Shown here: positions 3,420 through 59,614 of the stretch, in pieces
Position numbering within the stretch: the stretch's first letter is position 1
How the letters are laid out: each line of letters opens with the position of its first letter
Origin: a virus
Strand: one strand, 5' to 3'
Length of the DNA stretch: 64,000 bases
Virus record (IMG/VR): IMGVR_UViG_3300042321_002027
Notes under the pieces: generated by a model
The model's database searches: none
What the model saw: the letters and a program-made list of their open reading frames with translations, nothing else
Told to the model about the DNA's origin: nothing
Translations under genes and position numbers: made by a program

Positions 3420-4426
3420 TTGGTCAATGCCAGTTTCGCAGCTAGATCTCGATAAGTGTTATTATCGATAATGTGATTAATAAAATCCGGAGAAAGACCA
3501 GCAAGGACCATGTCGTTAACATCCTTGTGTTCTAGATTCTCTGGCCATATACACACATTATACCCGTTCATAATACTTTTGTCAAGCTTTTTTATTGTCT
3601 CTCTTGATCTTGGTTCATTATCATAAACAATAACAAGTTTGCTCTTATCAAAGTTTTTAAGAACAGGAATCATCTCTCCACCAGCTACCGCAATTGAATT
3701 AGGAACAAACATAGAATCGATCGGTCCTTCAAAAGCATACGTTTTTCTCATAAGGTCAACAGTGTCTAAACCATAGACCTTCGGAGAAGTGTCGTTCAAT
3801 ACGATGGTGATATACTTAGTTTTTGACGATCTTAAGGAACGCCCTTGGAAGGCAAATAAGTTTTTATTTTTGTCTAAGAAAGGAATCAAAAGCCTTTGTT
3901 CGTCATGCTTTAGTGCGTCATTCTCAAACTTATTAGGTAGTATTCCATTAACGAATGACATAAAATTAGGACATGCAAAAAGTTTCGCATGGTAAGGATT
4001 TGGAATTTTTCTTAGATCAACAAACTTCTTGATAGGATGATCTGGTGATAGCTGACTAACCTTCTTCAATCCCTTCAACGGTCCACTCTTCATGAACACA
4101 GGCTTCTTCATTTTTTCGATGAACTCTTCGTACTCTCTCTGCTCAGGAGTTTTCTTATCCTGTAGCTTCTCAAGTTGCATCTCATTATAGAGATTCAGAT
4201 CGATCATCTTAATAAAATTAGGCACAGATGAACTTGCCCCACAGTTGTGACAGTGGAACGACATCTTACCTTGCTTTTCGTAGATATATCCGCGAGCTTT
4301 ACTCTTGCTAGACTCTGAGTCTCCGCAAATTGGACACCTAAAGTTATAAAGAGTCGGTCCCTTGCGCTTAAACTTCTCTAATCGAGTAGAAACAATACCA
4401 ATATATTTGTGCTGCAGCCAATCCAT
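3404..4426 (-). CDS. gp61: T4 gp61-like DNA primase
   Basis: Zn ribbon CPICGD...HCHNC, FQGR, TOPRIM EGPIDS, YDNEPR, KDVND. Confidence 0.95.
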   Translation of the reverse strand: MDWLQHKYIGIVSTRLEKFKRKGPTLYNFRCPICGDSESSKSKARGYIYEKQGKMSFHCHNCGASSSVPNFIKMIDLNLYNEMQLEKLQDKKTPEQREYEEFIEKMKKPVFMKSGPLKGLKKVSQLSPDHPIKKFVDLRKIPNPYHAKLFACPNFMSFVNGILPNKFENDALKHDEQRLLIPFLDKNKNLFAFQGRSLRSSKTKYITIVLNDTSPKVYGLDTVDLMRKTYAFEGPIDSMFVPNSIAVAGGEMIPVLKNFDKSKLVIVYDNEPRSRETIKKLDKSIMNGYNVCIWPENLEHKDVNDMVLAGLSPDFINHIIDNNTYRDLAAKLALTKWSKV

Positions 4427-5951: not shown

Positions 5952-6944
5952 TTATGAATCGTGTAGAACTGTGTCGTCAGCACCATCAGCTGTTGTAGCT
6001 GGAGTACCAAAGGCAGCTGTTTGAGCACCAAGAGATCCCATGGCTACCAATGTTTCCATTTGAACACGACCAGCGCGACCACCAGTGCCTTCTGTACGAA
6101 GAACCCAACCAGCGTGAGCAGCGCCCTGACGCTTTGCACCAGTTACGATGACAAGACCAGTAGCAGTGTCGCCGCGAATTGTGTGAGTTTCTCCAGAAAC
6201 AGTTACTCGGGTGTCAACAATGTTAACATTTGCACCACCAGCAGATTCTGAAAGAGCAATTGTAGATGTATTAGCAAAAGAAACATAATAAAAAGTATTA
6301 CCAGTTAGAGGAGCGATTGGTGTGTTAGCTGTTGGAACAGAATAGAACAAACGATCGCCAACCTGCAATCTAGAGTTGGCAGTAGAAACAACCAATGTGT
6401 CAGTTGTGTTACTGAAACCAGCTGAGTTTGCAGTGATGTTAATTGCAGCAGGAGCAGCAATAGTGATTGCTGGTGTTTCAGCGATGCCAGTGATTGACTG
6501 GTTTGAAGTTAATGCAGTTACGCGACCAAGAACAACAGTAGCATTAGCAGCTGAAGTGTTAGTTACGCCATTGGCAAAAGTAATAGTGACAGCGGCTGCA
6601 GTGTTTGATGCATAACCAGAACCAGATCCTGTTACACGCCAAATACCGTTTGTTGAACCAGTTGTTAAGCCCATTTCTGCTGCGTCAACACCGAAAACAC
6701 CGACAGCCTGTCCTGGAATGTAAGCATTTAAAGTAGTATTTAAATACATACTTACATCAACGTTGGCTCTAGAGCCATCTGATGTGTTACCGAAGTGAGC
6801 GTTAGCACCATCGACGCGAACTGAAGAGTTACCGCCTCCAGACTTAACTAAAGCATGAGTACCGATTGGTGCTCCATTTGATGATTCAACAGTAGTAGTG
6901 CTATTAGCAGTTACTGCTTGATCGTTTCTACCCCATAATGGCAT
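5952..6944 (-). CDS. Probable virion structural protein
   Basis: MPLWG N-terminus and AHAGWV...GRAGRVQMETLVAM C-terminus typical of T4-like phages; late-promoter-like TAATAAATA upstream. Confidence 0.7.
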   Translation of the reverse strand: MPLWGRNDQAVTANSTTTVESSNGAPIGTHALVKSGGGNSSVRVDGANAHFGNTSDGSRANVDVSMYLNTTLNAYIPGQAVGVFGVDAAEMGLTTGSTNGIWRVTGSGSGYASNTAAAVTITFANGVTNTSAANATVVLGRVTALTSNQSITGIAETPAITIAAPAAINITANSAGFSNTTDTLVVSTANSRLQVGDRLFYSVPTANTPIAPLTGNTFYYVSFANTSTIALSESAGGANVNIVDTRVTVSGETHTIRGDTATGLVIVTGAKRQGAAHAGWVLRTEGTGGRAGRVQMETLVAMGSLGAQTAAFGTPATTADGADDTVLHDS

Positions 6945-12478: not shown

Positions 12479-13666
12479 TTAGCAATCCCAAGCTTTACGA
12501 GACCAATAGTTGGCGCTTGTTGTATTAGTTAAATTACCTTGACCGCCTGAACGAGCGCAATATGAGTCTTTGTTGCTCTTAATATGCTTCTTGATAGACA
12601 TTGTCTTGCTACCAAAGTTTACCTTTTGTGCCTTGCCATCGCCGTCCGGATCAACATAAACCTTAGACTTCTTAACGTCGCCCTTCATTGGCTTGTTGAG
12701 AGGAACTGTCTTACCCTTGTAAGTGGCTTCAGCTATAACTTTTTTAATAGTTTGTAGGGTTGATTTTTTCATTTGACCTGGAGTATCGCCCTTATAGACG
12801 TTTGTTAATGAAGTTGTACCATCAAATCTTGATGATGGGTTATTTTTGTTTTTGGAAACTTTTTCTGCACCAGTGTACTCGTCACCATACATTTGACGAT
12901 ATTTCTTTGTGTGTTTTGACTCTCTTGTTTTAGCGGTTGCATCACCTGGAGCTTTTCCGTAAGCAGAAGGGTCATCCCAATGCTTTTCTCTACCTTTTGC
13001 AAAGTGTGCAGCACGTGCTTTGTCTGTTCCTTTTTGACCAGTCGTGTACTTCTTTGGCAAACCAGTTTCTTTATCTTTTGGAACTTCAGGCAGTTTTTCT
13101 TCTCTTAAATCTTTATCAGCGCCGTGATATGTGCCTTTGCCTTTAGTAATATATGAATTCACACGAGCCATACCCCACTGCTGTGGTGTAGTTCCTGGAC
13201 GATGACCAGTTCTCCAAGCAGCGACGCCTCTAGAATACACTTTCTTCAATGTTCCTAAAGAAACTCCTGAAGCAGCAGCCTTCTTTGCTAAGGCTGACTC
13301 TGATTCGTCTAGCTCATATTCTTCATTTTGTGCTGATTTAATTTGCTCTCTAGTTGGAGCACCCTTTGATCCTGGCTTCCTCATTTTTTCACCAGAACCA
13401 GCCTTGATTCTGGCACGCTTGGCGTGGATATTAGCCCATAAACCCTTTCCGCCCTCTAAAAGGTCAGCGTCTAATTCGGTGGCGTATCCACCAGCTATGA
13501 AGGAGTTAACTCGGTCAAAACCAAACTGTTCAGGGTTGCCTGTGAACGATTCGTTCCAAAGGTTGTAGCCGCGAAGGTAGATCTGTTCTAAAACCGCAAT
13601 CGAGTATCCAGAGCTTTGTGACTTCTTGTACAAAGCTAGTTTCTGCTTATCATTCAATTCTACCAT
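12479..13666 (-). CDS. Basic multi-module phage protein with an internal domain duplication
   Basis: Two copies of AL.KK...SG.S...L...Y.RG...W...P.Q.G..RVNS.I; C-terminal KVNFG...SYCARS...SANYWS. Confidence 0.75.
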   Translation of the reverse strand: MVELNDKQKLALYKKSQSSGYSIAVLEQIYLRGYNLWNESFTGNPEQFGFDRVNSFIAGGYATELDADLLEGGKGLWANIHAKRARIKAGSGEKMRKPGSKGAPTREQIKSAQNEEYELDESESALAKKAAASGVSLGTLKKVYSRGVAAWRTGHRPGTTPQQWGMARVNSYITKGKGTYHGADKDLREEKLPEVPKDKETGLPKKYTTGQKGTDKARAAHFAKGREKHWDDPSAYGKAPGDATAKTRESKHTKKYRQMYGDEYTGAEKVSKNKNNPSSRFDGTTSLTNVYKGDTPGQMKKSTLQTIKKVIAEATYKGKTVPLNKPMKGDVKKSKVYVDPDGDGKAQKVNFGSKTMSIKKHIKSNKDSYCARSGGQGNLTNTTSANYWSRKAWDC

Positions 13667-13745
13667 CGGAGTTTCCCTTTAGGCTTATCCGTTTATGTTT
13701 ATGCGAGTTTGCCGATAGCCTTATCGCGGTTTACTATTATTTATA
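13667..13745 (-). promoter_or_regulatory. T4-type late promoter plus tandem structured 5' leader
   Basis: TATAAATA at 13745-13738; two covarying hairpins at 13727-13703 and 13691-13667. Confidence 0.7.
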
Positions 13746-13752
13746 ATAAAAC

Positions 13753-15060
13753 TTATCTTGAAACTTCTTCCCAGTCCATAGATCCGTAGACACTCTCACC
13801 ATTAGTTTTGGCTGCCAACACAAGAGAGATTTCAAACGGCGTTCCCGTAAAACTGTTTCTTTCTAGCTGAAATTTAAATAGTGCTTCTTTGAGAATATCC
13901 ACAGACGCGCTGGTGCTTGCCGTTGATGTAAAGTAACCAGATGCAAGGGTTCTGCCACCTGAAGTGCCAGTGCCTGTTATGTTATATTCAACAGCACTAT
14001 CATCACCTGCACTTACCCATGTTCCGCCTGTTGTAGTGGTGCTTGCTCTTACCTGCCAGTTGAAGTTACTTGCTGTGTCAGCGATACAAGATAATGCAGT
14101 AAGAATTACTACAGCATCTAGTGAGGTTGCTTTTAGTCTTAATGAAACAATTGGGTAAAATGTTCCTGCTGTAGCCAAACTACGTGCCGCAGTTATTGGA
14201 GTACCTATTGCTTGCTGCGAACCTCTAAGTTCGTATCCACCTTCAGAGATTACAGATGAGCAGACTTGTTTCATTAAGCTGCTATTAGCAGTTGTTCCTG
14301 TGTTTCTAATTTCGTAACGAACAGGAAGTGAAGCAGTCGTCATGTAAGTAGATGTAATGTAATTTGCATGGTGAAAAGAGTGGCAATGAATTAACTTACC
14401 ATCAATAACAAAACCACAACGAACTGAACCAAGACCCAACCATTCAATATCATGGAATACGATCTGCGCCTTTGACATATCCAATGTTGCTTTAGAAGGA
14501 CTAGATGCAACGTTGCCTAGTAGAGTATCAATGTTCCAATTTGCCTGTTCTGCTCTTATTTCGACTACATTACCGTTTGAATATGAACGTTCAACAAACG
14601 CAATATTGGTGCCATTAGCTTCCAAATAGATACCGTTGTTATTACCAAAGTAACCAACTCTTTGTCTTAGGTTTGCCTTTGGTGGTGACATAACAACTGT
14701 GTTTAATATCTGCAATGACTTACCAGGCTGATACGAAAACACCTTGGTTGTTTCTCTAATAATTTCAGCACCAGAAGTTGTCGGTAAATTGAGTTCAATC
14801 AACCCTGCATTAGCATTAAAATTATATGTTGTTCCGGCTGAGTTTGATGTTGACCATAAACCGTTGTCTTTATAACGATGTGAAGAATCAAACAACGTTA
14901 GTGGTTGTGAAACTCTTGAACGACCAAATGCGTCAACAGCCATACCTGTAGGATTTGATGGACCTACCAAGTTGCCATATTGATCTGCAAGCATGACAAC
15001 TTCAAATATTGTTGTTCCATCTTTTAAATATTGGTGAGTATCTTTACGAAATTGTGCCAT
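13753..15060 (-). CDS. Probable virion structural protein
   Basis: DAFGRSRVSQPLTLFDS, YQPGKS, EWLGLGSVRCGF motifs; beta-rich. Confidence 0.7.
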   Translation of the reverse strand: MAQFRKDTHQYLKDGTTIFEVVMLADQYGNLVGPSNPTGMAVDAFGRSRVSQPLTLFDSSHRYKDNGLWSTSNSAGTTYNFNANAGLIELNLPTTSGAEIIRETTKVFSYQPGKSLQILNTVVMSPPKANLRQRVGYFGNNNGIYLEANGTNIAFVERSYSNGNVVEIRAEQANWNIDTLLGNVASSPSKATLDMSKAQIVFHDIEWLGLGSVRCGFVIDGKLIHCHSFHHANYITSTYMTTASLPVRYEIRNTGTTANSSLMKQVCSSVISEGGYELRGSQQAIGTPITAARSLATAGTFYPIVSLRLKATSLDAVVILTALSCIADTASNFNWQVRASTTTTGGTWVSAGDDSAVEYNITGTGTSGGRTLASGYFTSTASTSASVDILKEALFKFQLERNSFTGTPFEISLVLAAKTNGESVYGSMDWEEVSR

Positions 15061-15062
15061 GT

Positions 15063-17138
15063 TTACTTTGCTCTTCTTTTAAGCGCGTCTATTAATAAAG
15101 GATTACCATTTTCGTCATAGTCCCAATAAGTAAGAGCTTTTTCTCTACTCATTTTTGGTTGGTACTCTTTGAAACCAATAATTTTAGATAATTTGTTCTG
15201 ACTATTACTTAGTTCTTTTGATAAAGATTGACCTGTTTGATCTGATGCTACGGCATTAGTGTCTGCATATCTGGCAAGTTCGTCATTTGTTGCAGCAGGA
15301 TTACCGCTGTTAAACCCTAAACCACCAACAGCTGCTGTTGTTGTTTCATTTAACTTCATGCCTTTTCTAACATCATTGTACATAGCAGTTTTGTTTCTAT
15401 CACTCATTGAAGATGGAGCCATAGACTTAAATGCGCCTACGTTTTTACTCTTAGCAGCATCTCTCATTTTAGAGGCTGAATAACCAGCAACGCTTTCACT
15501 CTCATCTCTTGCGCCTCCAGCTTGAGCAAAGTTAAGTTTCATGTCATAGAAACCATGTGGTCCTTTTACGCCATTATATTTCTTAGCCATTTCTCCCATC
15601 GCGTCTCTATCAGACCCACCTACAATAGTTACTTCTCTGTGCCCTTCATTATATGCTCTGCTCAAATGGTGAAGTAAGTTAGGTTGTGCTGGTGAAGATG
15701 TACTAAAATTTACCCCAGGAAAAGCACTTCTAGCATGCTTTAATTTTTGCTCTGCAGTTAATGGATTTTTCTTTGGATCATGGCTGTGAGAAAGTATTAT
15801 CTCATGATCTGCATTGTTACGCTTTGCTTCATCAGCTACCTTTTTAACAACAAGACCATGACCTTGATGGATTGGATTCATTCGAACAAAAGAAATAACT
15901 TTGGCTTCATCTAAAGATTCCGCCATGGCTTGTCTCTCTTTAGCTAGTTGACTTTGTTTTCCTTTAAGGAAATTTTGCCTAGAAAACTCTTCACGGTCAA
16001 CAAACTTAGTCATGTTACCTTTCTTATCAACAGCAACACCGCCTTCTGGACCAGTAGCCTCTCCACCGATAGAGTGCATAAAAGGGTTATTTTTAGCCAT
16101 TACATTAGTCAATACATTCTTGGCAGCTTGTAAATGGCCATGAACCTCTAATGCTTTCTTAAAGTGTGGTAAATTATCAGTAATTTGTTTTACCAATTTG
16201 GCATGGTCTTGGATTTTCTTTTCTTTTGCTGCAGGAGTTTTAACCTTATCAACTTCTTTTTTAGACTTTTCAGCTAAATCAGCAAGATAACCTTCAATTG
16301 ATGGTTTACCACCCTCGCGCACCATTTTGTTAACATGCATTTCTAATCCAGGACCATGCCCCTCAATAGCATCCATAGCTTCAGGCTTCATACCAGAATA
16401 TGCTTTTCTTACATTAGCAGAATGATTCAAGAAAGCTTGCTGCTCTTCAGCAGTATAGTTTTGCGGATTGACGTCAATTGTTGGGTCAATGTTATGGACA
16501 TCCGGATGATTTCTAAAAGTATTTCTAGACTTTTCATCTAAAGCAGAAGCACCCATAGACTCTAACTTTTTACCACCGGAATACTTGGTATGTACCACAA
16601 CACCAAGCTCAGCATTTTTCATTTGAGAGCCATGTTCACTGTCATTTGGCGCTGAGTAAGTGATAGTATTAGGTGTAACACTGCGCATACCATTTTTTTC
16701 TGTTACATCACCCTTGGTGTACATCAAGTCACCTTGATAAACGCCACCATTTCTTGGCATGATTTTAGGTAGGTGATCTAGTGCACCTTTTAGTTTCTCG
16801 ACCAATCCAGGAGCATGACCGTGATTACGTTCGATATCTTCAGGAGTGTAGTTTATCTTAGGATCTTTATTGAAAGCAGACTTAGAAGCAACGAAAAACT
16901 TACCAGTTTCTGGATGTGTTCCAAATACAATTGATGGCGAACCATCATATTTTGTGGTTACCATGGTAGAATTATTTCTGCCAAGCAACTTGTTATGCAC
17001 ATCTTCTAAATGTTGAGCAGCAATACCTACACCCTCATGACCGCCATGAATAACCATGTCTTCAAGGTGAGTAAGATGCTTTAGTTTTTTCCCTTGTTCT
17101 TCTATATCTTCTAGGAGAAAATTTGAAAAGTTAATCAT
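15063..17138 (-). CDS. Fusion of a ligase-like (KxDG) domain and an HxGH cytidylyltransferase-like domain
   Basis: HLTHLED, TTKYDGSP, YQGD, EGGV, TKFVDR; then RMNPIHQGH, VGGSDR, SASKMR. Confidence 0.8.
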   Translation of the reverse strand: MINFSNFLLEDIEEQGKKLKHLTHLEDMVIHGGHEGVGIAAQHLEDVHNKLLGRNNSTMVTTKYDGSPSIVFGTHPETGKFFVASKSAFNKDPKINYTPEDIERNHGHAPGLVEKLKGALDHLPKIMPRNGGVYQGDLMYTKGDVTEKNGMRSVTPNTITYSAPNDSEHGSQMKNAELGVVVHTKYSGGKKLESMGASALDEKSRNTFRNHPDVHNIDPTIDVNPQNYTAEEQQAFLNHSANVRKAYSGMKPEAMDAIEGHGPGLEMHVNKMVREGGKPSIEGYLADLAEKSKKEVDKVKTPAAKEKKIQDHAKLVKQITDNLPHFKKALEVHGHLQAAKNVLTNVMAKNNPFMHSIGGEATGPEGGVAVDKKGNMTKFVDREEFSRQNFLKGKQSQLAKERQAMAESLDEAKVISFVRMNPIHQGHGLVVKKVADEAKRNNADHEIILSHSHDPKKNPLTAEQKLKHARSAFPGVNFSTSSPAQPNLLHHLSRAYNEGHREVTIVGGSDRDAMGEMAKKYNGVKGPHGFYDMKLNFAQAGGARDESESVAGYSASKMRDAAKSKNVGAFKSMAPSSMSDRNKTAMYNDVRKGMKLNETTTAAVGGLGFNSGNPAATNDELARYADTNAVASDQTGQSLSKELSNSQNKLSKIIGFKEYQPKMSREKALTYWDYDENGNPLLIDALKRRAK

Positions 17139-18607
17139 TACGCATGTCCTTGATAAATTTCGTGGTCGGCATGAACCTGTCTACCAAACATCTCATTGCT
17201 TATTTTTTTAGGTTCTGCTTGTGGTTTGTTTTCTACTTTTGGATTAGACTTAATTACGGGGTTAACTGGTGGCCTAGAGGTAGATTTGTCCCACATATGA
17301 ACGCCTCTACGATTAACTGCAGTGTTTCCACCAGCTGGTGAAGAATCAACAACATAACTTACTCCATGCCCTGAAGGACCACTTAATGAAGTTGATATAG
17401 AACCAGGATTAGAAGTAATTTTGTATTGACCGTAAGATGATTCAAAATGTGAATCAAAATCGTTTTCTGCATCTGATATTTCAGAAACTCTTTCTGGCGC
17501 GCCTTTTTTAATTTCACCAGAAGTACTTTTCCAAGTATTTAACCTTACAACTGGCATTTTACTTTGATCTCTTCCTATATTTAATGTTTTCTTTAGAAAA
17601 GATCTTATTTTTTCTTTATTTTCCGGAGTTTGGACGTTCATGATGTTAGCCATGTGACGACCTAAAGAAACATTTGTAGCTCTTTTAGCTATTTCAGTTC
17701 TGCTGTCTCTTAATTCTTTGTATATGTTCGCAAAAGTTTCTCTGTCTTTATCATTAGCATACATTGATTTGTTTTTTTCTTCTGAAGCTTTTTCAAGATA
17801 TCTAAAAGCATCTTTTGTTTTATCTGAGTCTTTAAGTAGACTTATATTACCATTTTTATCGTAAGAAAGTTTGTTTGGAGAAGAGATACCATTTTCGCCA
17901 AAATGCCTTTTTAAAAACGGTTCATATTTTTTTAATATTTTACCGTGTGCTAATTTAGCAGCATTTTCTGCTTTTTCAGAATCTGCTTCAAACGAACCAG
18001 ATTTACCTGTTATATTTTTATATTCATCATCAATTTGTTTTGAAAATTTACCAAGACCAGAATTAAATAGTTTAGATTCTGATCCAGATTTTAAGCTTAC
18101 TCCAAAATATCCATTTCCGAGATTTTTGTGACCATGCTCAACTACAATATCTGAATTATTCGTTTCGTCTTCTACGCCAGTTAAATTTTTGATATCATTT
18201 TTATTTGCTGTAAAATGTACGCCTTTTATGTCTTTAATGCCATTTTTGTGCAAATGGTCTATTAAATGAGAAGCTCCATGTAAAGCATGCTGAAAAATAT
18301 CTTCATAATTATCTTTATCAGCAGCGTTTCCTAGTTCATTGTGAAGATCTTCAGCAGTTTTATTATCACTGTCTTTAAATTGAGGCATATGCGTTAGTGA
18401 ATACATATGACTGTTTTTCATTTTTTGCGGTTTGTTTATAGCTTGCATAGCCATATTATGCGCAGTATCATGACCCTTACTAATATTTTTTTGGTAAACT
18501 TTAGCATAATGATTAACTAATCCACCAACTAGAACTTCATGAAGTTTTCCATATTGATTCTTATTTAATTTTTCTTCAAGCAAAAAATTAGAAAAATTTA
18601 ACATCAT
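17138..18607 (-). CDS. Hypothetical protein, possible PD-(D/E)xK-like nuclease
   Basis: GKLHEVL...NSDIVV...GVSLKS; N-terminus MMLNFSNFLLEE. Confidence 0.5.
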   Translation of the reverse strand: MMLNFSNFLLEEKLNKNQYGKLHEVLVGGLVNHYAKVYQKNISKGHDTAHNMAMQAINKPQKMKNSHMYSLTHMPQFKDSDNKTAEDLHNELGNAADKDNYEDIFQHALHGASHLIDHLHKNGIKDIKGVHFTANKNDIKNLTGVEDETNNSDIVVEHGHKNLGNGYFGVSLKSGSESKLFNSGLGKFSKQIDDEYKNITGKSGSFEADSEKAENAAKLAHGKILKKYEPFLKRHFGENGISSPNKLSYDKNGNISLLKDSDKTKDAFRYLEKASEEKNKSMYANDKDRETFANIYKELRDSRTEIAKRATNVSLGRHMANIMNVQTPENKEKIRSFLKKTLNIGRDQSKMPVVRLNTWKSTSGEIKKGAPERVSEISDAENDFDSHFESSYGQYKITSNPGSISTSLSGPSGHGVSYVVDSSPAGGNTAVNRRGVHMWDKSTSRPPVNPVIKSNPKVENKPQAEPKKISNEMFGRQVHADHEIYQGHA

Positions 18608-19287
18608 TTAGAACCTTTCTCTTTAGGAGTAGCTGAATATCTAGTTACTTTGACATTACCAGTTTCAGGATCATGTTGAACATGGTGACCGTGAAATGCA
18701 ACATCTGGAAATTTCTTTTGTAACTTCAGCATACCATTAATATTGTCTATAGAGTCATCGTACAAGTGAACTTCTTTTAGCCCTTCTTTTTCGATGGCTC
18801 CAGCTATATGAGCAGCCTTTGTATCAGCTGGCTTTCCTTGTGTATTCCCAGCTCTGCGTACGTGAACACCAGAACCTGGAGTGATGTCGATACCATATTT
18901 ACCCATTATCTGAGCAAACTTTTCTTTATCATCTAAGTCGCCGCGAGCAGTTAACATCTCGACGTTGGCGCCATTCTTTTTCATTGCTTTTAGTTTAGCA
19001 ACCATACCACGGATAGGAGTAGCCGACTGATCGAATAGATCAGAGCTTCTAAACTCGCTAAAATCGTAGCTGTGATCAGGGGAGAGTTGATGTGAGTTAA
19101 ATTCTTGGTTTGTTAAAGTTCGAACTCTACGACCAGAAGAGTCTTTAACGTGGACTCTTAACTTATTGTGATCGTGCGCGAAAAGGGTTTCGTCTATGTC
19201 GAAATAGTGTTTAGCTTTTCTGTTTTTAACTGAAGGTTTAGAAACAGCTTCATTTATCGATAAAAAATGCTGAAATTTTAACATCAT
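18604..19287 (-). CDS. HAD-superfamily phosphatase (PNK 3'-phosphatase-like)
   Basis: FDIDETL (motif I), LTARG (II), K (III), LYDDS (IV). Confidence 0.8.
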   Translation of the reverse strand: MMLKFQHFLSINEAVSKPSVKNRKAKHYFDIDETLFAHDHNKLRVHVKDSSGRRVRTLTNQEFNSHQLSPDHSYDFSEFRSSDLFDQSATPIRGMVAKLKAMKKNGANVEMLTARGDLDDKEKFAQIMGKYGIDITPGSGVHVRRAGNTQGKPADTKAAHIAGAIEKEGLKEVHLYDDSIDNINGMLKLQKKFPDVAFHGHHVQHDPETGNVKVTRYSATPKEKGSK

Positions 19288-21809: not shown

Positions 21810-22836
21810 CCCCCATGATAGAGCCAATAGCAATCTTATAACGATTTTCAATATACTTGGCAAAGTCTGTTGTGTTAAACATGTTAATCCAAAACTCTTT
21901 ACTATCAACAATTTCTGAAGCACGCATGTTCGGTGCCTTAATCTCACCAGTTTCTCTGTCGACTAAAGCATACCAACCATTTTTAGGCTTAACAATATAT
22001 CCACCATCCAGAGCAACATCCAACAAACCAGACCAGCGATTAATGCCACCTTCAAATGAAACGGTAATTGGAATCTTAGACTTTTCTTTAACATATCTGC
22101 TCTTTTCTATATTGATGACGAAATGGTAGCCATTGATACCATCAGCGTCCTTGTCCTGCTGACGACCAAGAATCCAGATATTATCAGAACCATAGTAAGA
22201 ACCAGTACCACCACCAACGATATCCTTGGGATACAAACCGATTTCCTTATAGGTGTGGTTGATCACGACCATAGGAATGTCCTTGAGAGACAGGTGAGGA
22301 GTGATCATACGGAACAATGACTTGAGCTGCTTTGCTCTAGACATATCGGCAACAGACTTACCGTCAAGTGCATCTTCAACTTCTTTCTTGGAAGCAAGAT
22401 TACCAATTGAGTCAATAACAATCATAACACGATCATCGCGACCTAGCTCTTTCATCTGAGCCATGATGTCAAACTTGAGTTCTTCAATGTCTGTGATCGG
22501 AGTGTGAATTACTGAGTCAAATGGAATTTTAAAAGTCTTGAAGTAATCTTGTGGAGTACCAAACTCCGAGTCATAGAACAGAACGATACCGTCAGGATAC
22601 TTCTTCAAAAAAGCAGAAGCAAGAAGCAAAGCAAAACCAGTCTTGAAGTGCTTCGAAGGACCAGCAAGCATTGTAAGTCCGGGAGTGATACCTCCATCAA
22701 TCGATCCGGATAAGGCAACGTTAATCATTGGAACAGAAGTAGGCACCATGTCCTTCTTCGTGAAAATCTTGCTGTCTGCAAGTGTATCTGTTAAATCAAT
22801 TGTGCTGTTTTTGAGTAGCTTATCTCTTAATGACAT
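21787..22836 (-). CDS. uvsX: UvsX RecA-like recombinase
   Basis: AGPSKHFKT, FYDSEFG, IDSIGNLASKKE, VVINHTY. Confidence 0.96.
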   Translation of the reverse strand: MSLRDKLLKNSTIDLTDTLADSKIFTKKDMVPTSVPMINVALSGSIDGGITPGLTMLAGPSKHFKTGFALLLASAFLKKYPDGIVLFYDSEFGTPQDYFKTFKIPFDSVIHTPITDIEELKFDIMAQMKELGRDDRVMIVIDSIGNLASKKEVEDALDGKSVADMSRAKQLKSLFRMITPHLSLKDIPMVVINHTYKEIGLYPKDIVGGGTGSYYGSDNIWILGRQQDKDADGINGYHFVINIEKSRYVKEKSKIPITVSFEGGINRWSGLLDVALDGGYIVKPKNGWYALVDRETGEIKAPNMRASEIVDSKEFWINMFNTTDFAKYIENRYKIAIGSIMGDEDETED

Positions 22837-49710: not shown

Positions 49711-50358
49711 ATGGACAGAGGTGTTTTTAGATCGATCGTTACTCCATATAGTATGACAACAGCGCCAAGAATTAATGCATTGTTCCAAAGTATGGAATAT
49801 ATCAGAAAAAATAATTTCAGCGGCGACTATGTTGAGTGTGGTGTGTGGCGAGGTGGTAATATATTGGGAATGATGAGGTATCTTGAATACCATAACAACA
49901 CTGAACCTAATATTTGGTTGTATGATACATTTTCCGGAATGACTCCTCCTGAAAGCGTTGACGTTGATTTTATGAATAACAAGGCTTCTGATATTCTAGA
50001 AAATGTTCTTTGTATGAATTCATTAGATGAAGTTAAACAGGCATTGACGAACAGCAATTATCCAACTGATAAGATTAAGTATGTCATTGGTGACATTTGC
50101 GAAACTCTCTTAGTTAAGGAGAACGTTCCTGAAAAGATCGCATTGCTGAGGTTAGATACAGATTGGTATAATTCTACAAAGGTTGAATTGGAAGTTTTGT
50201 GGGATAAACTTGAAGTTGGTGCACCTTGCATCATTGACGATTATGGACATTGGCAAGGTTGTAGAATGGCAGTTGATGAATTTTTCGCGAAGCTGCCACA
50301 GGCTCATGAATTTGAACAAATAGATTACACTTGTGTTAGAACACACAAGATTTGTTAA
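49711..50358 (+). CDS. TylF/MycF-family O-methyltransferase
   Basis: GDYVECGVWRGG, LYDTFSGM, LLRLDTDWYNST, IIDDYGHWQG. Confidence 0.9.
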   Translation: MDRGVFRSIVTPYSMTTAPRINALFQSMEYIRKNNFSGDYVECGVWRGGNILGMMRYLEYHNNTEPNIWLYDTFSGMTPPESVDVDFMNNKASDILENVLCMNSLDEVKQALTNSNYPTDKIKYVIGDICETLLVKENVPEKIALLRLDTDWYNSTKVELEVLWDKLEVGAPCIIDDYGHWQGCRMAVDEFFAKLPQAHEFEQIDYTCVRTHKIC

Positions 50359-50410: not shown

Positions 50411-50563
50411 ATGAAGTTGATCAAATTAGAAGAGTTTATTATAGCTGATACCGGAGTAAAGGTCACGATTCTTGTTGACATTGCTACAATGGGTAAAGCA
50501 TACGCTGAGGCTCATCTGAAATGGCCAAAGATATTATCGTTGAAGGAATACGAAAAACACTGA
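50411..50563 (+). CDS. Possible 50-aa ORF ending inside the tmRNA acceptor piece
   Basis: MKLIKLEEFIIADTGVKVTILVDIATMGKAYAEAHLKWPKILSLKEYEKH; no clear RBS. Confidence 0.35.
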   Translation: MKLIKLEEFIIADTGVKVTILVDIATMGKAYAEAHLKWPKILSLKEYEKH

Positions 50564-50833
50564 GGACTGGGGGGCAGTACCCCACGCCTCCACCAAAGAC
50601 ACACTACCTAATAATAGCGGCGTACCCGTGGGGTTATTAGGAGTCTTGCAAGCTGGTGTGTCTTTGATGGGGGCGAACTAGGATCGACTGAGTGTAGAAT
50701 AGTTGACTGGAGATAATCGTAGGCGACTACGTACAAGCGCAAAACTCTAAATGCAAACGATAACTTTGCACCTCGTTTGGCACTAGCTGCCTAACATGAG
50801 TCCGGTGGGTACTTGGAAACAGAAACCCACCAC
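50533..50833 (+). ncRNA. ssrA: Two-piece (circularly permuted) tmRNA
   Basis: Acceptor piece ends TGGGG-GGCAGTA-CCCCA-CGCCTCC-ACCA (50595); intervening stem; coding piece starts GGGGGCG (50669) giving G3.U70; tag ANDNFAPRLALAA* at 50753-50794. Confidence 0.92.
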
Positions 50834-50842
50834 CAATTTCGC

Positions 50843-50871
50843 TTGACATTAAATCGGTGTCAGGGTACAAT
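50843..50871 (+). promoter_or_regulatory. Early-type promoter for the tRNA-like gene
   Basis: TTGACA-ttaaatcggtgtcaggg-TACAAT. Confidence 0.75.
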
Positions 50872-50880
50872 GAATAATAA

Positions 50881-50963
50881 GGCCACGTAACCGAGGACGG
50901 CTTCTACCCGTTTACACGTAACTGGAGTTGCAAATGGGGGTTCGAATCCCTCCGTGGTCGCCA
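50881..50963 (+). tRNA. Atypical tRNA, anticodon UCU, no D stem, long variable arm
   Basis: GGCCACG/CGTGGTC-G-CCA; GACGG-CTTCTAC-CCGTT; GGGGG-TTCGAAT-CCCTC. Confidence 0.7.
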
Positions 50964-51556: not shown

Positions 51557-51648
51557 GGGCGTGGGTGTTGGTACACAAGAGCGGCTTATACTCGCTTTAG
51601 CACTAGATCGGTGTTCTCGACAGGGTTCGAATCCTTGCACGCCTACCA
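51557..51648 (+). tRNA. Atypical tRNA, anticodon UAU, minimal D arm, long variable arm
   Basis: GGGCGTG/CACGCCT-A-CCA; GTGT-TGGT-ACAC; AGCGG-CTTATAC-TCGCT; CAGGG-TTCGAAT-CCTTG. Confidence 0.75.
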
Positions 51649-58882: not shown

Positions 58883-59614
58883 ATGCCATTTCCATCAACC
58901 ACTTCAAATATCCCAAATTTCCCTAAACCATTAGACAGAAATGAAAATTCTGGTCCTTTGGTTTTTCCAAACGATTTGACAAACAGCACTGGTAGAAATT
59001 TCTACACACAAATACAATTCGTTCAATATTCTATATTCCAACAAATAAATTTTATGGGTTCGTATGCATTGCCATCCGGCGGTATGAAGCTTCCTATACC
59101 TTCTAAAGTAAACGACAACTTAATTTTACATTGGAGCCCAGTTTCTTTAACCGAATCTGTGTTAGGTGCAGCGGGTTCTTTTGGTAAAGGCGCTGGTCTT
59201 GTAGCACAATTAGGCGGTGCTGCGGTTCCTGGAGGACTTGCACTTAATCCATTGATGTTTTTGCTTTTCCAAAGACCTGAATACAGACAATTTTCGCTAA
59301 GTTGGTTGTTAACTCCAAGAAACGAAAAAGAATCTAACACAATTAAGAACATAGTTACTAAGTGCAAGAGGGCTGCTTCTCCTGACAGATTTGGTCCGTT
59401 TCTTATGACATATCCACAAGTAGCTCTAATTAAGATGTATCCAAATGATATTTTCGGGCAAATGATATTTAAACCTTGTATTATAACATCTGTTCAAGTT
59501 AATTACACAAATGCTCCAACTCCAGCTTTCCATAAAAATGGAGCTCCTGCAGCAGTTGCATTAACATTGAATCTGATGGAAATGCAGTTCTGGTTCAGAA
59601 ACGAGATAACCTAA
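58883..59614 (+). CDS. gp48-like baseplate tail-tube cap
   Basis: NP...LFQRPEYRQFSLSWLLTPRNEKES..I; CIITSVQVNY. Confidence 0.8.
   Translation: MPFPSTTSNIPNFPKPLDRNENSGPLVFPNDLTNSTGRNFYTQIQFVQYSIFQQINFMGSYALPSGGMKLPIPSKVNDNLILHWSPVSLTESVLGAAGSFGKGAGLVAQLGGAAVPGGLALNPLMFLLFQRPEYRQFSLSWLLTPRNEKESNTIKNIVTKCKRAASPDRFGPFLMTYPQVALIKMYPNDIFGQMIFKPCIITSVQVNYTNAPTPAFHKNGAPAAVALTLNLMEMQFWFRNEIT

Follow-up and report, generated by a model that had tools for sequence, protein, structure and literature searches.

The window analysed here is the whole stretch of 64,000 nucleotides of the viral record IMGVR_UViG_3300042321_002027. On its minus strand, an intergenic gap (13667-13752) lies between a gene for a virion structural protein (phrog_1645; 13753..15060) and the gene of a 395-aa DUF5824 protein (12479..13666; Pfam DUF5824, E 1e-23), which contains an internal repeat and for which an AlphaFold model was made. 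The upstream gene is outside the element described below, and its stop codon is found 7 nt before a T4-type late promoter box, TATAAATA (13738-13745), as read from the sequence. Hairpin 1 (13703-13727) begins after a spacing of 10 nt. It is followed by an A-rich, unpaired linker of 11 nt (AUAAACAUAAA; 13692-13702), by hairpin 2 (13667-13691) and, directly 3' of the last hairpin 2 pair, by the start codon ATG (13664-13666). All of these features are read on the minus strand. Among relatives, the linker differs in both length and sequence.

Each hairpin comprises 25 nt: an outer stem of 4 bp and a capped inner stem of 3 bp, with the 4x4 internal loop UAAG/AAAC between them. Hairpin 1 reads GCGA-UAAG-GCU-auc-GGC-AAAC-UCGC: the outer stem GCGA/UCGC is separated by the loop UAAG (13720-13723) / AAAC (13707-13710) from the inner stem GCU/GGC and the apical loop AUC. 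Hairpin 2 reads CGGA-UAAG-CCU-aaa-GGG-AAAC-UCCG, with the outer stem CGGA/UCCG, the loop UAAG (13684-13687) / AAAC (13671-13674), the inner stem CCU/GGG and the apical loop AAA. A Shine-Dalgarno-like AAGGG (13675-13679) is located within hairpin 2. The first-pass annotation had pointed to tandem hairpins on the minus strand after a perfect TATAAATA, and the sequence is exactly as it described; its placing of hairpin 2 over the ribosome-binding site and against the ATG also agrees with the sequence, as AAGGG lies inside the hairpin and the ATG directly 3' of it.

The two units are direct repeats, and the repetition extends upstream over about 5 nt of flanking sequence (UAAAC in the window; AAUGUU in relatives of the commonest type), which shows an origin by duplication. 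Their shared core pattern has two matches in the 64-kb window against 0.10 expected, both confined to the twin-hairpin locus, and none of 100 shuffles reached two. The two-hairpin fold is the MFE as well as the centroid structure of the sense strand, and it is neither on the antisense strand. Its stability is ordinary (z = -1.44; 20 of 200 shuffles fold equally well), so that the more-than-chance status of the element rests on conservation and covariation in relatives, not on thermodynamics. A pairing between the promoter region and the start region in a read-through transcript (window 13655-13760 (-), 11 bp in the 106-nt MFE) was considered and rejected, as it is not significant (z -1.5) and not conserved in relatives.

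Judged by its genes, the window is T4-like myophage DNA, and a bacterial origin is excluded. The large ORFs encode replication and recombination proteins of the T4 type, namely ribonucleotide reductase, gp61 primase, gp41 helicase, UvsX, gp43 polymerase, gp59 loader and gp32. Tail genes are present, and genes for virion proteins and proteins of unknown function cluster around the twin-hairpin locus. The first idea, a prophage of an alphaproteobacterium, had come from a tmRNA gene and from hits to HMO-2011. It is ruled out by the T4-like UvsX, gp43, gp41, gp61, gp59, gp32 and ribonucleotide reductase genes and further weakened by the two-piece tmRNAs known from phages of the T4-like group found here, which were described for Melnitz-like phages and pelagimyophages (PMC9004378). 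The tmRNA gene of the window (50477-50885 (+)) is of this two-piece (permuted, alpha-type) form and has the tag ANDNFAPRLALAA; a tRNA-Ile(tat) call of 92 nt lies nearby (51557-51648 (+)). Both T4 early and T4 late promoter classes can be read in this phage. Sigma-70-like early promoters (TTGACA, 17 nt, TATAAT) are located upstream of the primase and UvsX genes (window 3427-3460, 21840-21890 (-) and others), and AATAAATA boxes are located upstream of the ORFs 5952-6944, 18604-19287, 49711-50358 and 58883-59614.

Conservation of the hairpins and their promoter

Relatives of the element were gathered by protein-guided IMG/VR scans, which used the downstream protein and a more distant homologue, and by two pattern scans. 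The element is present in at least 55 IMG/VR viral contigs, and 34 distinct sequences were aligned; the commonest hairpin 2 subtype alone is found, as an exact match, in 32 contigs. More divergent members (L009/L010, L074-L078, L217 and L241/L242) were recovered with a covariance model of the tandem (R1).

The pairing was assessed in two alignments. In a MAFFT alignment of 27 leaders (A2), which was not fitted to any structure model, 97.1% of the cells are paired and 6 of 14 pairs show compensatory change, with at most 50% pairing for slid partner columns. Unguided, RNAalifold found the same two hairpins in this alignment. Among the 34 model-aligned sequences, in an alignment whose fitting to the model favours pairing, 98.2% of the stem cells are paired and both partners have changed in 9 of 13 pairs, against 17.6-55.5% pairing and 0-2 both-side-changed pairs in slid controls. 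The compensatory changes affect 4 of 4 outer pairs of hairpin 1, and 3 of 4 outer and 1 of 3 inner pairs of hairpin 2. Accordingly, several stem haplotypes are found. Hairpin 1 has at least seven pairing-compatible stem sequences, including GCGA/UCGC, GCAG/CUGC, GCGG/CCGU, ACAG/CUGU and GAAG/CUUC, and hairpin 2 at least five, including CGGA/UCCG, UGGA/UCCA, CAGA/UCUG, UGGU/ACCA and GCGG/CCGC.

The unpaired bases are the most conserved part of the hairpin units, and the stems drift. An alignment of 33 distinct units (A5) has five invariant positions, namely the A at the third place of the 5' loop, the A and the C that open and close the 3' loop, an apical A and a G of the inner stem. The 5' loop is UAAG, with the variants UUAG, UCAG, UAUAG and AAA, and the 3' loop is AAAC, with the variants AGAC, AAUC and AACC. 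Apical loops vary, from AUC and AAA in the window to UACG, UAUG, AAA, ACA and AAG in relatives. The pair flanking the internal loop covaries (A-U, G-C, U-A), and the register of the symmetric 4x4 loop is thereby fixed, which suggests that non-canonical G-A and A-A/A-G pairs adjoin the inner stem. The twin-hairpin leader is retained across downstream proteins that are only 33-46% identical.

Taken together, these alignments indicate that the tandem hairpins are a genuine conserved RNA structure. The earlier proposal that the stems covary with compensation around conserved loop bases was first drawn from the window and is now borne out across relatives (9 of 13 pairs; 98.2% paired), so that both conservation and covariation are present in the homologous leaders (34 distinct sequences). 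An inner-stem U-G pair occurs in 22 of the 34 sequences; its counterpart on the opposite strand would be an A-C mismatch. Since such G-U pairs are valid on one strand only and the antisense strand folds otherwise, the structure belongs to the sense-strand RNA.

A site acting at the DNA level, such as a DNA-binding operator or a replication or packaging signal, could account for direct repeats that extend into the upstream flank, and so could a recent tandem duplication devoid of function. We consider both extremely unlikely. The compensatory changes keep the pairing as the half-sites change, which is the opposite of selection on the site of a DNA-binding dimer, and the G-U pairs work on one strand only. 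A recent or neutral duplication would not be expected to persist across proteins of such low identity.

The promoter box is conserved along with the hairpins. NNTAAATA is found upstream of hairpin 1 in 34 of 34 aligned leaders, at a distance of 5-11 nt; the box is a perfect TATAAATA in 21 of them, NCTAAATA or AATAAATA in 12 and GGTAAATA in one. By its sequence, it belongs with the T4-type late promoters, being a perfect box and the sole promoter element, about 6 nt before the predicted start. The window contains nine WATAAATA boxes, a count at chance level, and five of them precede an ORF start on their own strand by 15-71 nt. The scanned ORFs of the window included no gp55. As the T4 late promoter consensus begins at -13 (PMC2988020), transcription is expected to start six bases after the box, at about 13732. 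This predicted start leaves 0-5 unpaired nt before hairpin 1. Because TATAAATA is the late-promoter consensus of a T4-like phage, the element would make up the entire 5' leader (about 66 nt) of a T4-like phage late mRNA. Two other assignments were rejected: a terminator, as no U-run follows the hairpins, and the PeSL cassette of T4-like phages, as the promoter is of the late type, a -35/-10 pair is missing and the U-run is missing too.

Gene linkage and the DUF5824 protein

The element is a single-locus feature. In the window, the tandem model R1 found one copy with 74.9 bits, the next match having 14.9 bits. One copy was also found in each of four relatives of 129-168 kb, and a fifth complete relative contains none. 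With a single-hairpin model (R2), hairpin 1 scored 33.2 bits (E 6e-7) and hairpin 2 34.8 bits (E 2e-7); per genome, R2 returned just the two hairpins of the tandem pair and nothing else above 14 bits. A regulon with extra copies before other genes is ruled out by these results.

Every examined ORF after the element carries the DUF5824 domain or its LYKKS signature, even where the N-terminal part is rearranged. In most relatives, the short downstream ORFs have a T4-like, capsid-targeting-like start (MVKKFKTFDPQLVVVE...). Fusions also occur, for instance a 717-aa cytidylyltransferase-DUF5824 protein (L009), a 1337-aa protein (L076) and a fusion with LysM (L142). That leader and gene always go together could simply reflect vertical inheritance. 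The DUF5824 protein can do without the element: among the 80 closest homologues of its gene, about 60 are without it (2.5 kb of flank on each side), and HTVC008M and Melnitz carry the DUF5824 domain and have no copy anywhere in their genomes according to a covariance model search.

Beyond IMG/VR, searches for the element gave little. The covariance model had no match in HTVC008M, Melnitz, C48C1 or S-RIM8, blastn of two leader types against 50,697 GenBank phage records returned nothing relevant, and the homologous intergenic DNA of cyanophage S-RIM8 and HMO-2011 showed no similarity. The exact hairpin 2 pattern had only four chance-level matches in cellular genomes, in unrelated taxa. A word search of RNA-seq data gave three runs, kept as contigs, each with 6-12% of the sampled words.

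The AlphaFold model of the 395-aa protein has a mean pLDDT of 59, with two confident DUF5824-type domains of three to four helices (residues 1-70 and 118-178) that are predicted to be joined by long disordered basic stretches. The protein had no sequence match among solved structures (PDB), its model gave nothing at E <= 0.001 with Foldseek, and an Atlas search returned only DUF5824 clusters. With VIA-align, the best matches of residues 118-178 were nearly all sigma-factor region 2, at Z 5-6.7 and an rmsd of about 3 A over about 58 residues, values below the tool's guide for helical domains. Sigma-factor region 2 is the domain that grips the single-stranded -10 promoter bases. The likeness, drawn from a predicted model, may serve as a lead only; such an enrichment is striking for a protein with a capsid-targeting-like start in its relatives. 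A literature search found no paper mentioning DUF5824, DUF6267 or DUF6321.

The window gene itself begins differently from most of its relatives. It starts with MVELNDKQ (13664-13630 (-)) and is without the capsid-targeting-like peptide of about 20 residues (MVKKFKTFDPQLVVVE...), only the MV codons being common. The window copy may therefore, going by this start, not be loaded into the phage head. Furthermore, different phages distribute the DUF6267, cytidylyltransferase-like and DUF5824 domains differently over separate and fused ORFs, for instance at 15063-17138 (-) in the window, 1461-3614 in L009 and 533-4546 in L076 (691, 717 and 1337 aa), which points to a functional unit in a head-cargo cluster. 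Another observation concerns the coding sequence after the element. The heptamer CAGCTAG is invariant about 25-35 nt into the ORF in relatives with the capsid-targeting-like start (L084, L201, L004, L005, L013, L241 and others). It codes for Q-L and the G of the next codon, and the flanking residues differ (PQLV, SQLD, LQLE, TQLE), which suggests a constraint at the nucleotide level. A partner sequence for CAGCTAG was looked for, and none was found.

A putative translational operator

Hairpin 2 is closely associated with the translation start. In the window, it spans positions -25 to -1 and encloses AAGGG, an overlap with the ribosome-binding site as found in autogenous operators. The window and most relatives have AAGGG, AAGGA or AGAGG in the upper 3' side of hairpin 2, with 0-1 nt between the end of the stem and the AUG; in the commonest type, the A of the start codon takes part in a fifth pair. 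The nearest-neighbour energies of hairpin 1 range from -3.1 to -6.8 kcal/mol, and those of the hairpin 2 forms holding the ribosome site from -3.1 to -6.2 kcal/mol. At these calculated values, the ribosome could open hairpin 2 unless something stabilises it. Occlusion of the Shine-Dalgarno sequence is not uniform, since in L076/L077, the lineage of the nucleotidyltransferase fusion, the two hairpins are both built like hairpin 1, and the second one (-7.3 and -8.2 kcal/mol) ends directly before a separate GAGGA, without Shine-Dalgarno bases inside.

The low stability of hairpin 2, which is interrupted by non-canonical positions, would suit an RNA thermometer or another physical switch of the ROSE or fourU type, in which a weak hairpin over the ribosome site melts with temperature or ions. 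In the ROSE layout, several hairpins are arranged with the last one over the Shine-Dalgarno sequence, and the twin hairpins resemble this layout. Such a switch is nevertheless very improbable here: no ROSE or fourU match was obtained, the loop bases are more conserved than melting needs, and a link to heat-shock genes is missing.

The leader most likely controls the amount of the downstream protein. Our preferred reading, put forward tentatively and at somewhat less than an even chance, is drawn from the anatomy of the leader: the twin hairpins would form a single-target translational operator bound by a protein, perhaps the product of the gene itself, with hairpin 1 also capping the 5' end of the mRNA. 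A protein-recognised operator, in the simplest case an autogenous one, is suggested by the combination of conserved loop bases on drifting stems, two equal modules, the placing of the second one over the ribosome site, and one target per genome that is tied to one protein family. The added stabilising role of hairpin 1 fits its 5'-terminal position.

In this operator, transcription would start a few bases after the gp55-type late promoter box TATAAATA, and the leader RNA would fold into two hairpins of one design, each with a 4-5-bp stem, a purine-rich 4x4 loop, a 2-3-bp stem and a stable cap. The loop, 5'-UAAG / 5'-ARAC, would probably be closed by non-canonical G-A and A-A pairs. Hairpin 1 would occupy the extreme 5' end of the leader, where it probably also shields the end from RNase E-type decay. 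Hairpin 2, enclosing the Shine-Dalgarno sequence and ending at the AUG, would have to open for initiation. The conserved internal loops may be the docking sites of a dimeric or two-domain protein, which, once bound, would lock hairpin 2 shut and lower the translation of the DUF5824 protein. As with T4 gp32 and gp43, the repressor may be the gene's own product.

The main rival is a constitutive, stabilising leader that works without a trans-acting factor, a possibility that we take seriously and still regard as unlikely. According to this explanation, hairpin 1 blocks 5'-end-dependent RNase E, hairpin 2 presents the Shine-Dalgarno sequence near its apex for a fixed, moderate initiation rate, and the loops are a self-contained, stable non-canonical motif. 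It agrees with the start of hairpin 1 at 0-5 nt from the T4-type start site (5-11 nt past the box) in 34 of 34 leaders, with hairpin 1 caps that are mostly UACG or UAUG tetraloops closed by C-G, and with the merely moderate stability of both hairpins. However, neither protection nor a set rate needs near-invariant unpaired bases in two loops on drifting stems, and fully paired stems would shield better. Moreover, the design is specific to this gene, as other genes of the window phage have ordinary AGGAG/GAGG sites behind short leaders, and its other late-promoter genes pair short, plain leaders with ribosome sites of the AGGAGG or GAGG type that are stronger than the one here.

Binding of a small molecule instead of a protein is the less likely form of recognition, because the element tracks DUF5824 and not the nucleotidyltransferase domain and because it has no junction or pseudoknot. 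In a tandem-domain riboswitch, each loop would bind a ligand, for example a nucleotide or cofactor of the cytidylyltransferase-like enzyme, and hairpin 2 would be stabilised and translation shut off. Two similar domains with conserved unpaired bases, the second over the ribosome site, are what such a switch would offer, and a cytidylyltransferase-like domain is indeed part of the downstream ORF in some lineages. In the window and its closest kin, however, the transferase domain is encoded by a separate upstream ORF, and it was undetected in four neighbouring ORFs scanned in L084-type phages. A conserved apical loop is absent, no Rfam riboswitch family matched even at E up to 10, and metabolite control would be odd for a late protein that is probably loaded into the capsid. 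We therefore judge a riboswitch improbable.

Returning to the protein-bound operator, a more specific and rather doubtful form of it concerns the binder. The helical, sigma-2-like DUF5824 domain might read the unpaired AUAAG/AAAC loop bases, so that a capsid-loaded, probably injected protein would limit its own synthesis. If true, this would be a new RNA-binding use of the fold and a new protein-RNA recognition pair.

The element adds an uncatalogued, well-supported structured RNA family to the few cis-regulatory RNAs of phages. The family is small, with two 25-nt modules and clearly defined recognition bases. In widespread, uncultured phages of the T4-like kind, it singles out the DUF5824 gene of a probably capsid-loaded cluster as one whose dosage is specially controlled, and it offers a way into the function of DUF5824, a domain that many marine and freshwater phages carry. 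Should a protein bind, the hairpin and its binder might be used in the manner of MS2 or PP7, as a small orthogonal tag for RNA.

Comparison with known RNA elements

The first-pass annotation had not recognised the motif as a known family, and the Rfam 15 search points the same way: nothing was found at the twin-hairpin locus at gathering thresholds. At E up to 10, the region 13620-13790 gave two chance-level hits on the opposite strand (CRISPR-DR5 with 15 bits and NEAT1_2 with 9 bits).

Several known motifs were compared by their details. The NAD+-I (nadA, RF03013) and guanidine-II (mini-ykkC) riboswitches also have tandem, similar small domains, the 3' one near the ribosome site. Unlike the twin hairpins, the nadA domains are larger and have asymmetric bulges, and no covariance-model match was found. 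Guanidine-II was rejected since it has conserved ACGR apical tetraloops, whereas the apical loops vary here, and since there was no Rfam hit. CsrA/RsmA sites were rejected as well, as hairpin 1 is without GGA (it has GGCAAAC or GGCAGAC) and members of the UGGU type have lost the 5' GGA of hairpin 2.

As for the internal loop, a kink-turn has an asymmetric 3-nt bulge and tandem sheared G-A and A-G pairs; it was rejected, the loop here being a symmetric 4x4 loop whose register is fixed by the covariation of the flanking pair. The site of ribosomal protein S8 (16S helix 21 and the spc operator) sets UAAG opposite AUAC, with AG paired to CU of the 3' strand. A mimic of this site looks alike in its letters only: the base that follows the 3' loop covaries with the one preceding UAAG (from GA/UC to AG/CU, and to U/A), against the S8 register. 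The UAA/GAN internal-loop motif occurs in rRNA, group I and II introns and RNase P. Taken here as a lead only, it resembles the hairpin 1 loops of the AGAC type, which set 5'-UAA against 5'-GAC. It differs from the window loops, in which AAAC places UAA opposite AAC, and from those of some relatives with AAUC or AACC.

With regard to the 5' end, the E. coli ompA leader is the type of a 5'-terminal stabilising stem-loop. Hairpin 1 is similar in lying within about 5 nt of the predicted 5' end. In contrast to the twin hairpins, stem-loops of the ompA type work without a conserved loop sequence, and no second copy of them covers the ribosome site. The T4 genes e, soc, 49 and I-TevI share with the present locus a T4-type late promoter that adjoins a hairpin covering the ribosome-binding site. 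Their late promoter lies inside the structure, and their late transcripts are without the inhibitory arm, whereas here both arms of both hairpins are downstream of the predicted start. A hairpin with a nested late promoter, as in e, soc and 49, was rejected for this locus: the box lies 10 nt upstream of hairpin 1 (5-11 nt in relatives), so the late transcript carries both hairpins.

The closest functional parallels of the putative operator are found among the translational operators of phages. The leader pseudoknot of T4 gene 32 and the hairpin operator of gene 43 are autogenous translational operators, and MS2 and PP7 have coat-protein operator hairpins. Like these, the twin hairpins form a small RNA structure that sits at or over the ribosome-binding site of a single phage gene, with unpaired recognition bases on a variable stem and a single target per genome. 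They differ in having no homology of sequence or structure with them, in being a pair, and in carrying their conserved bases in symmetric 4x4 internal loops, compared with an apical loop, a bulge or a pseudoknot in the known operators. They also differ in that the mRNA of the twin hairpins is late and its binder putative.
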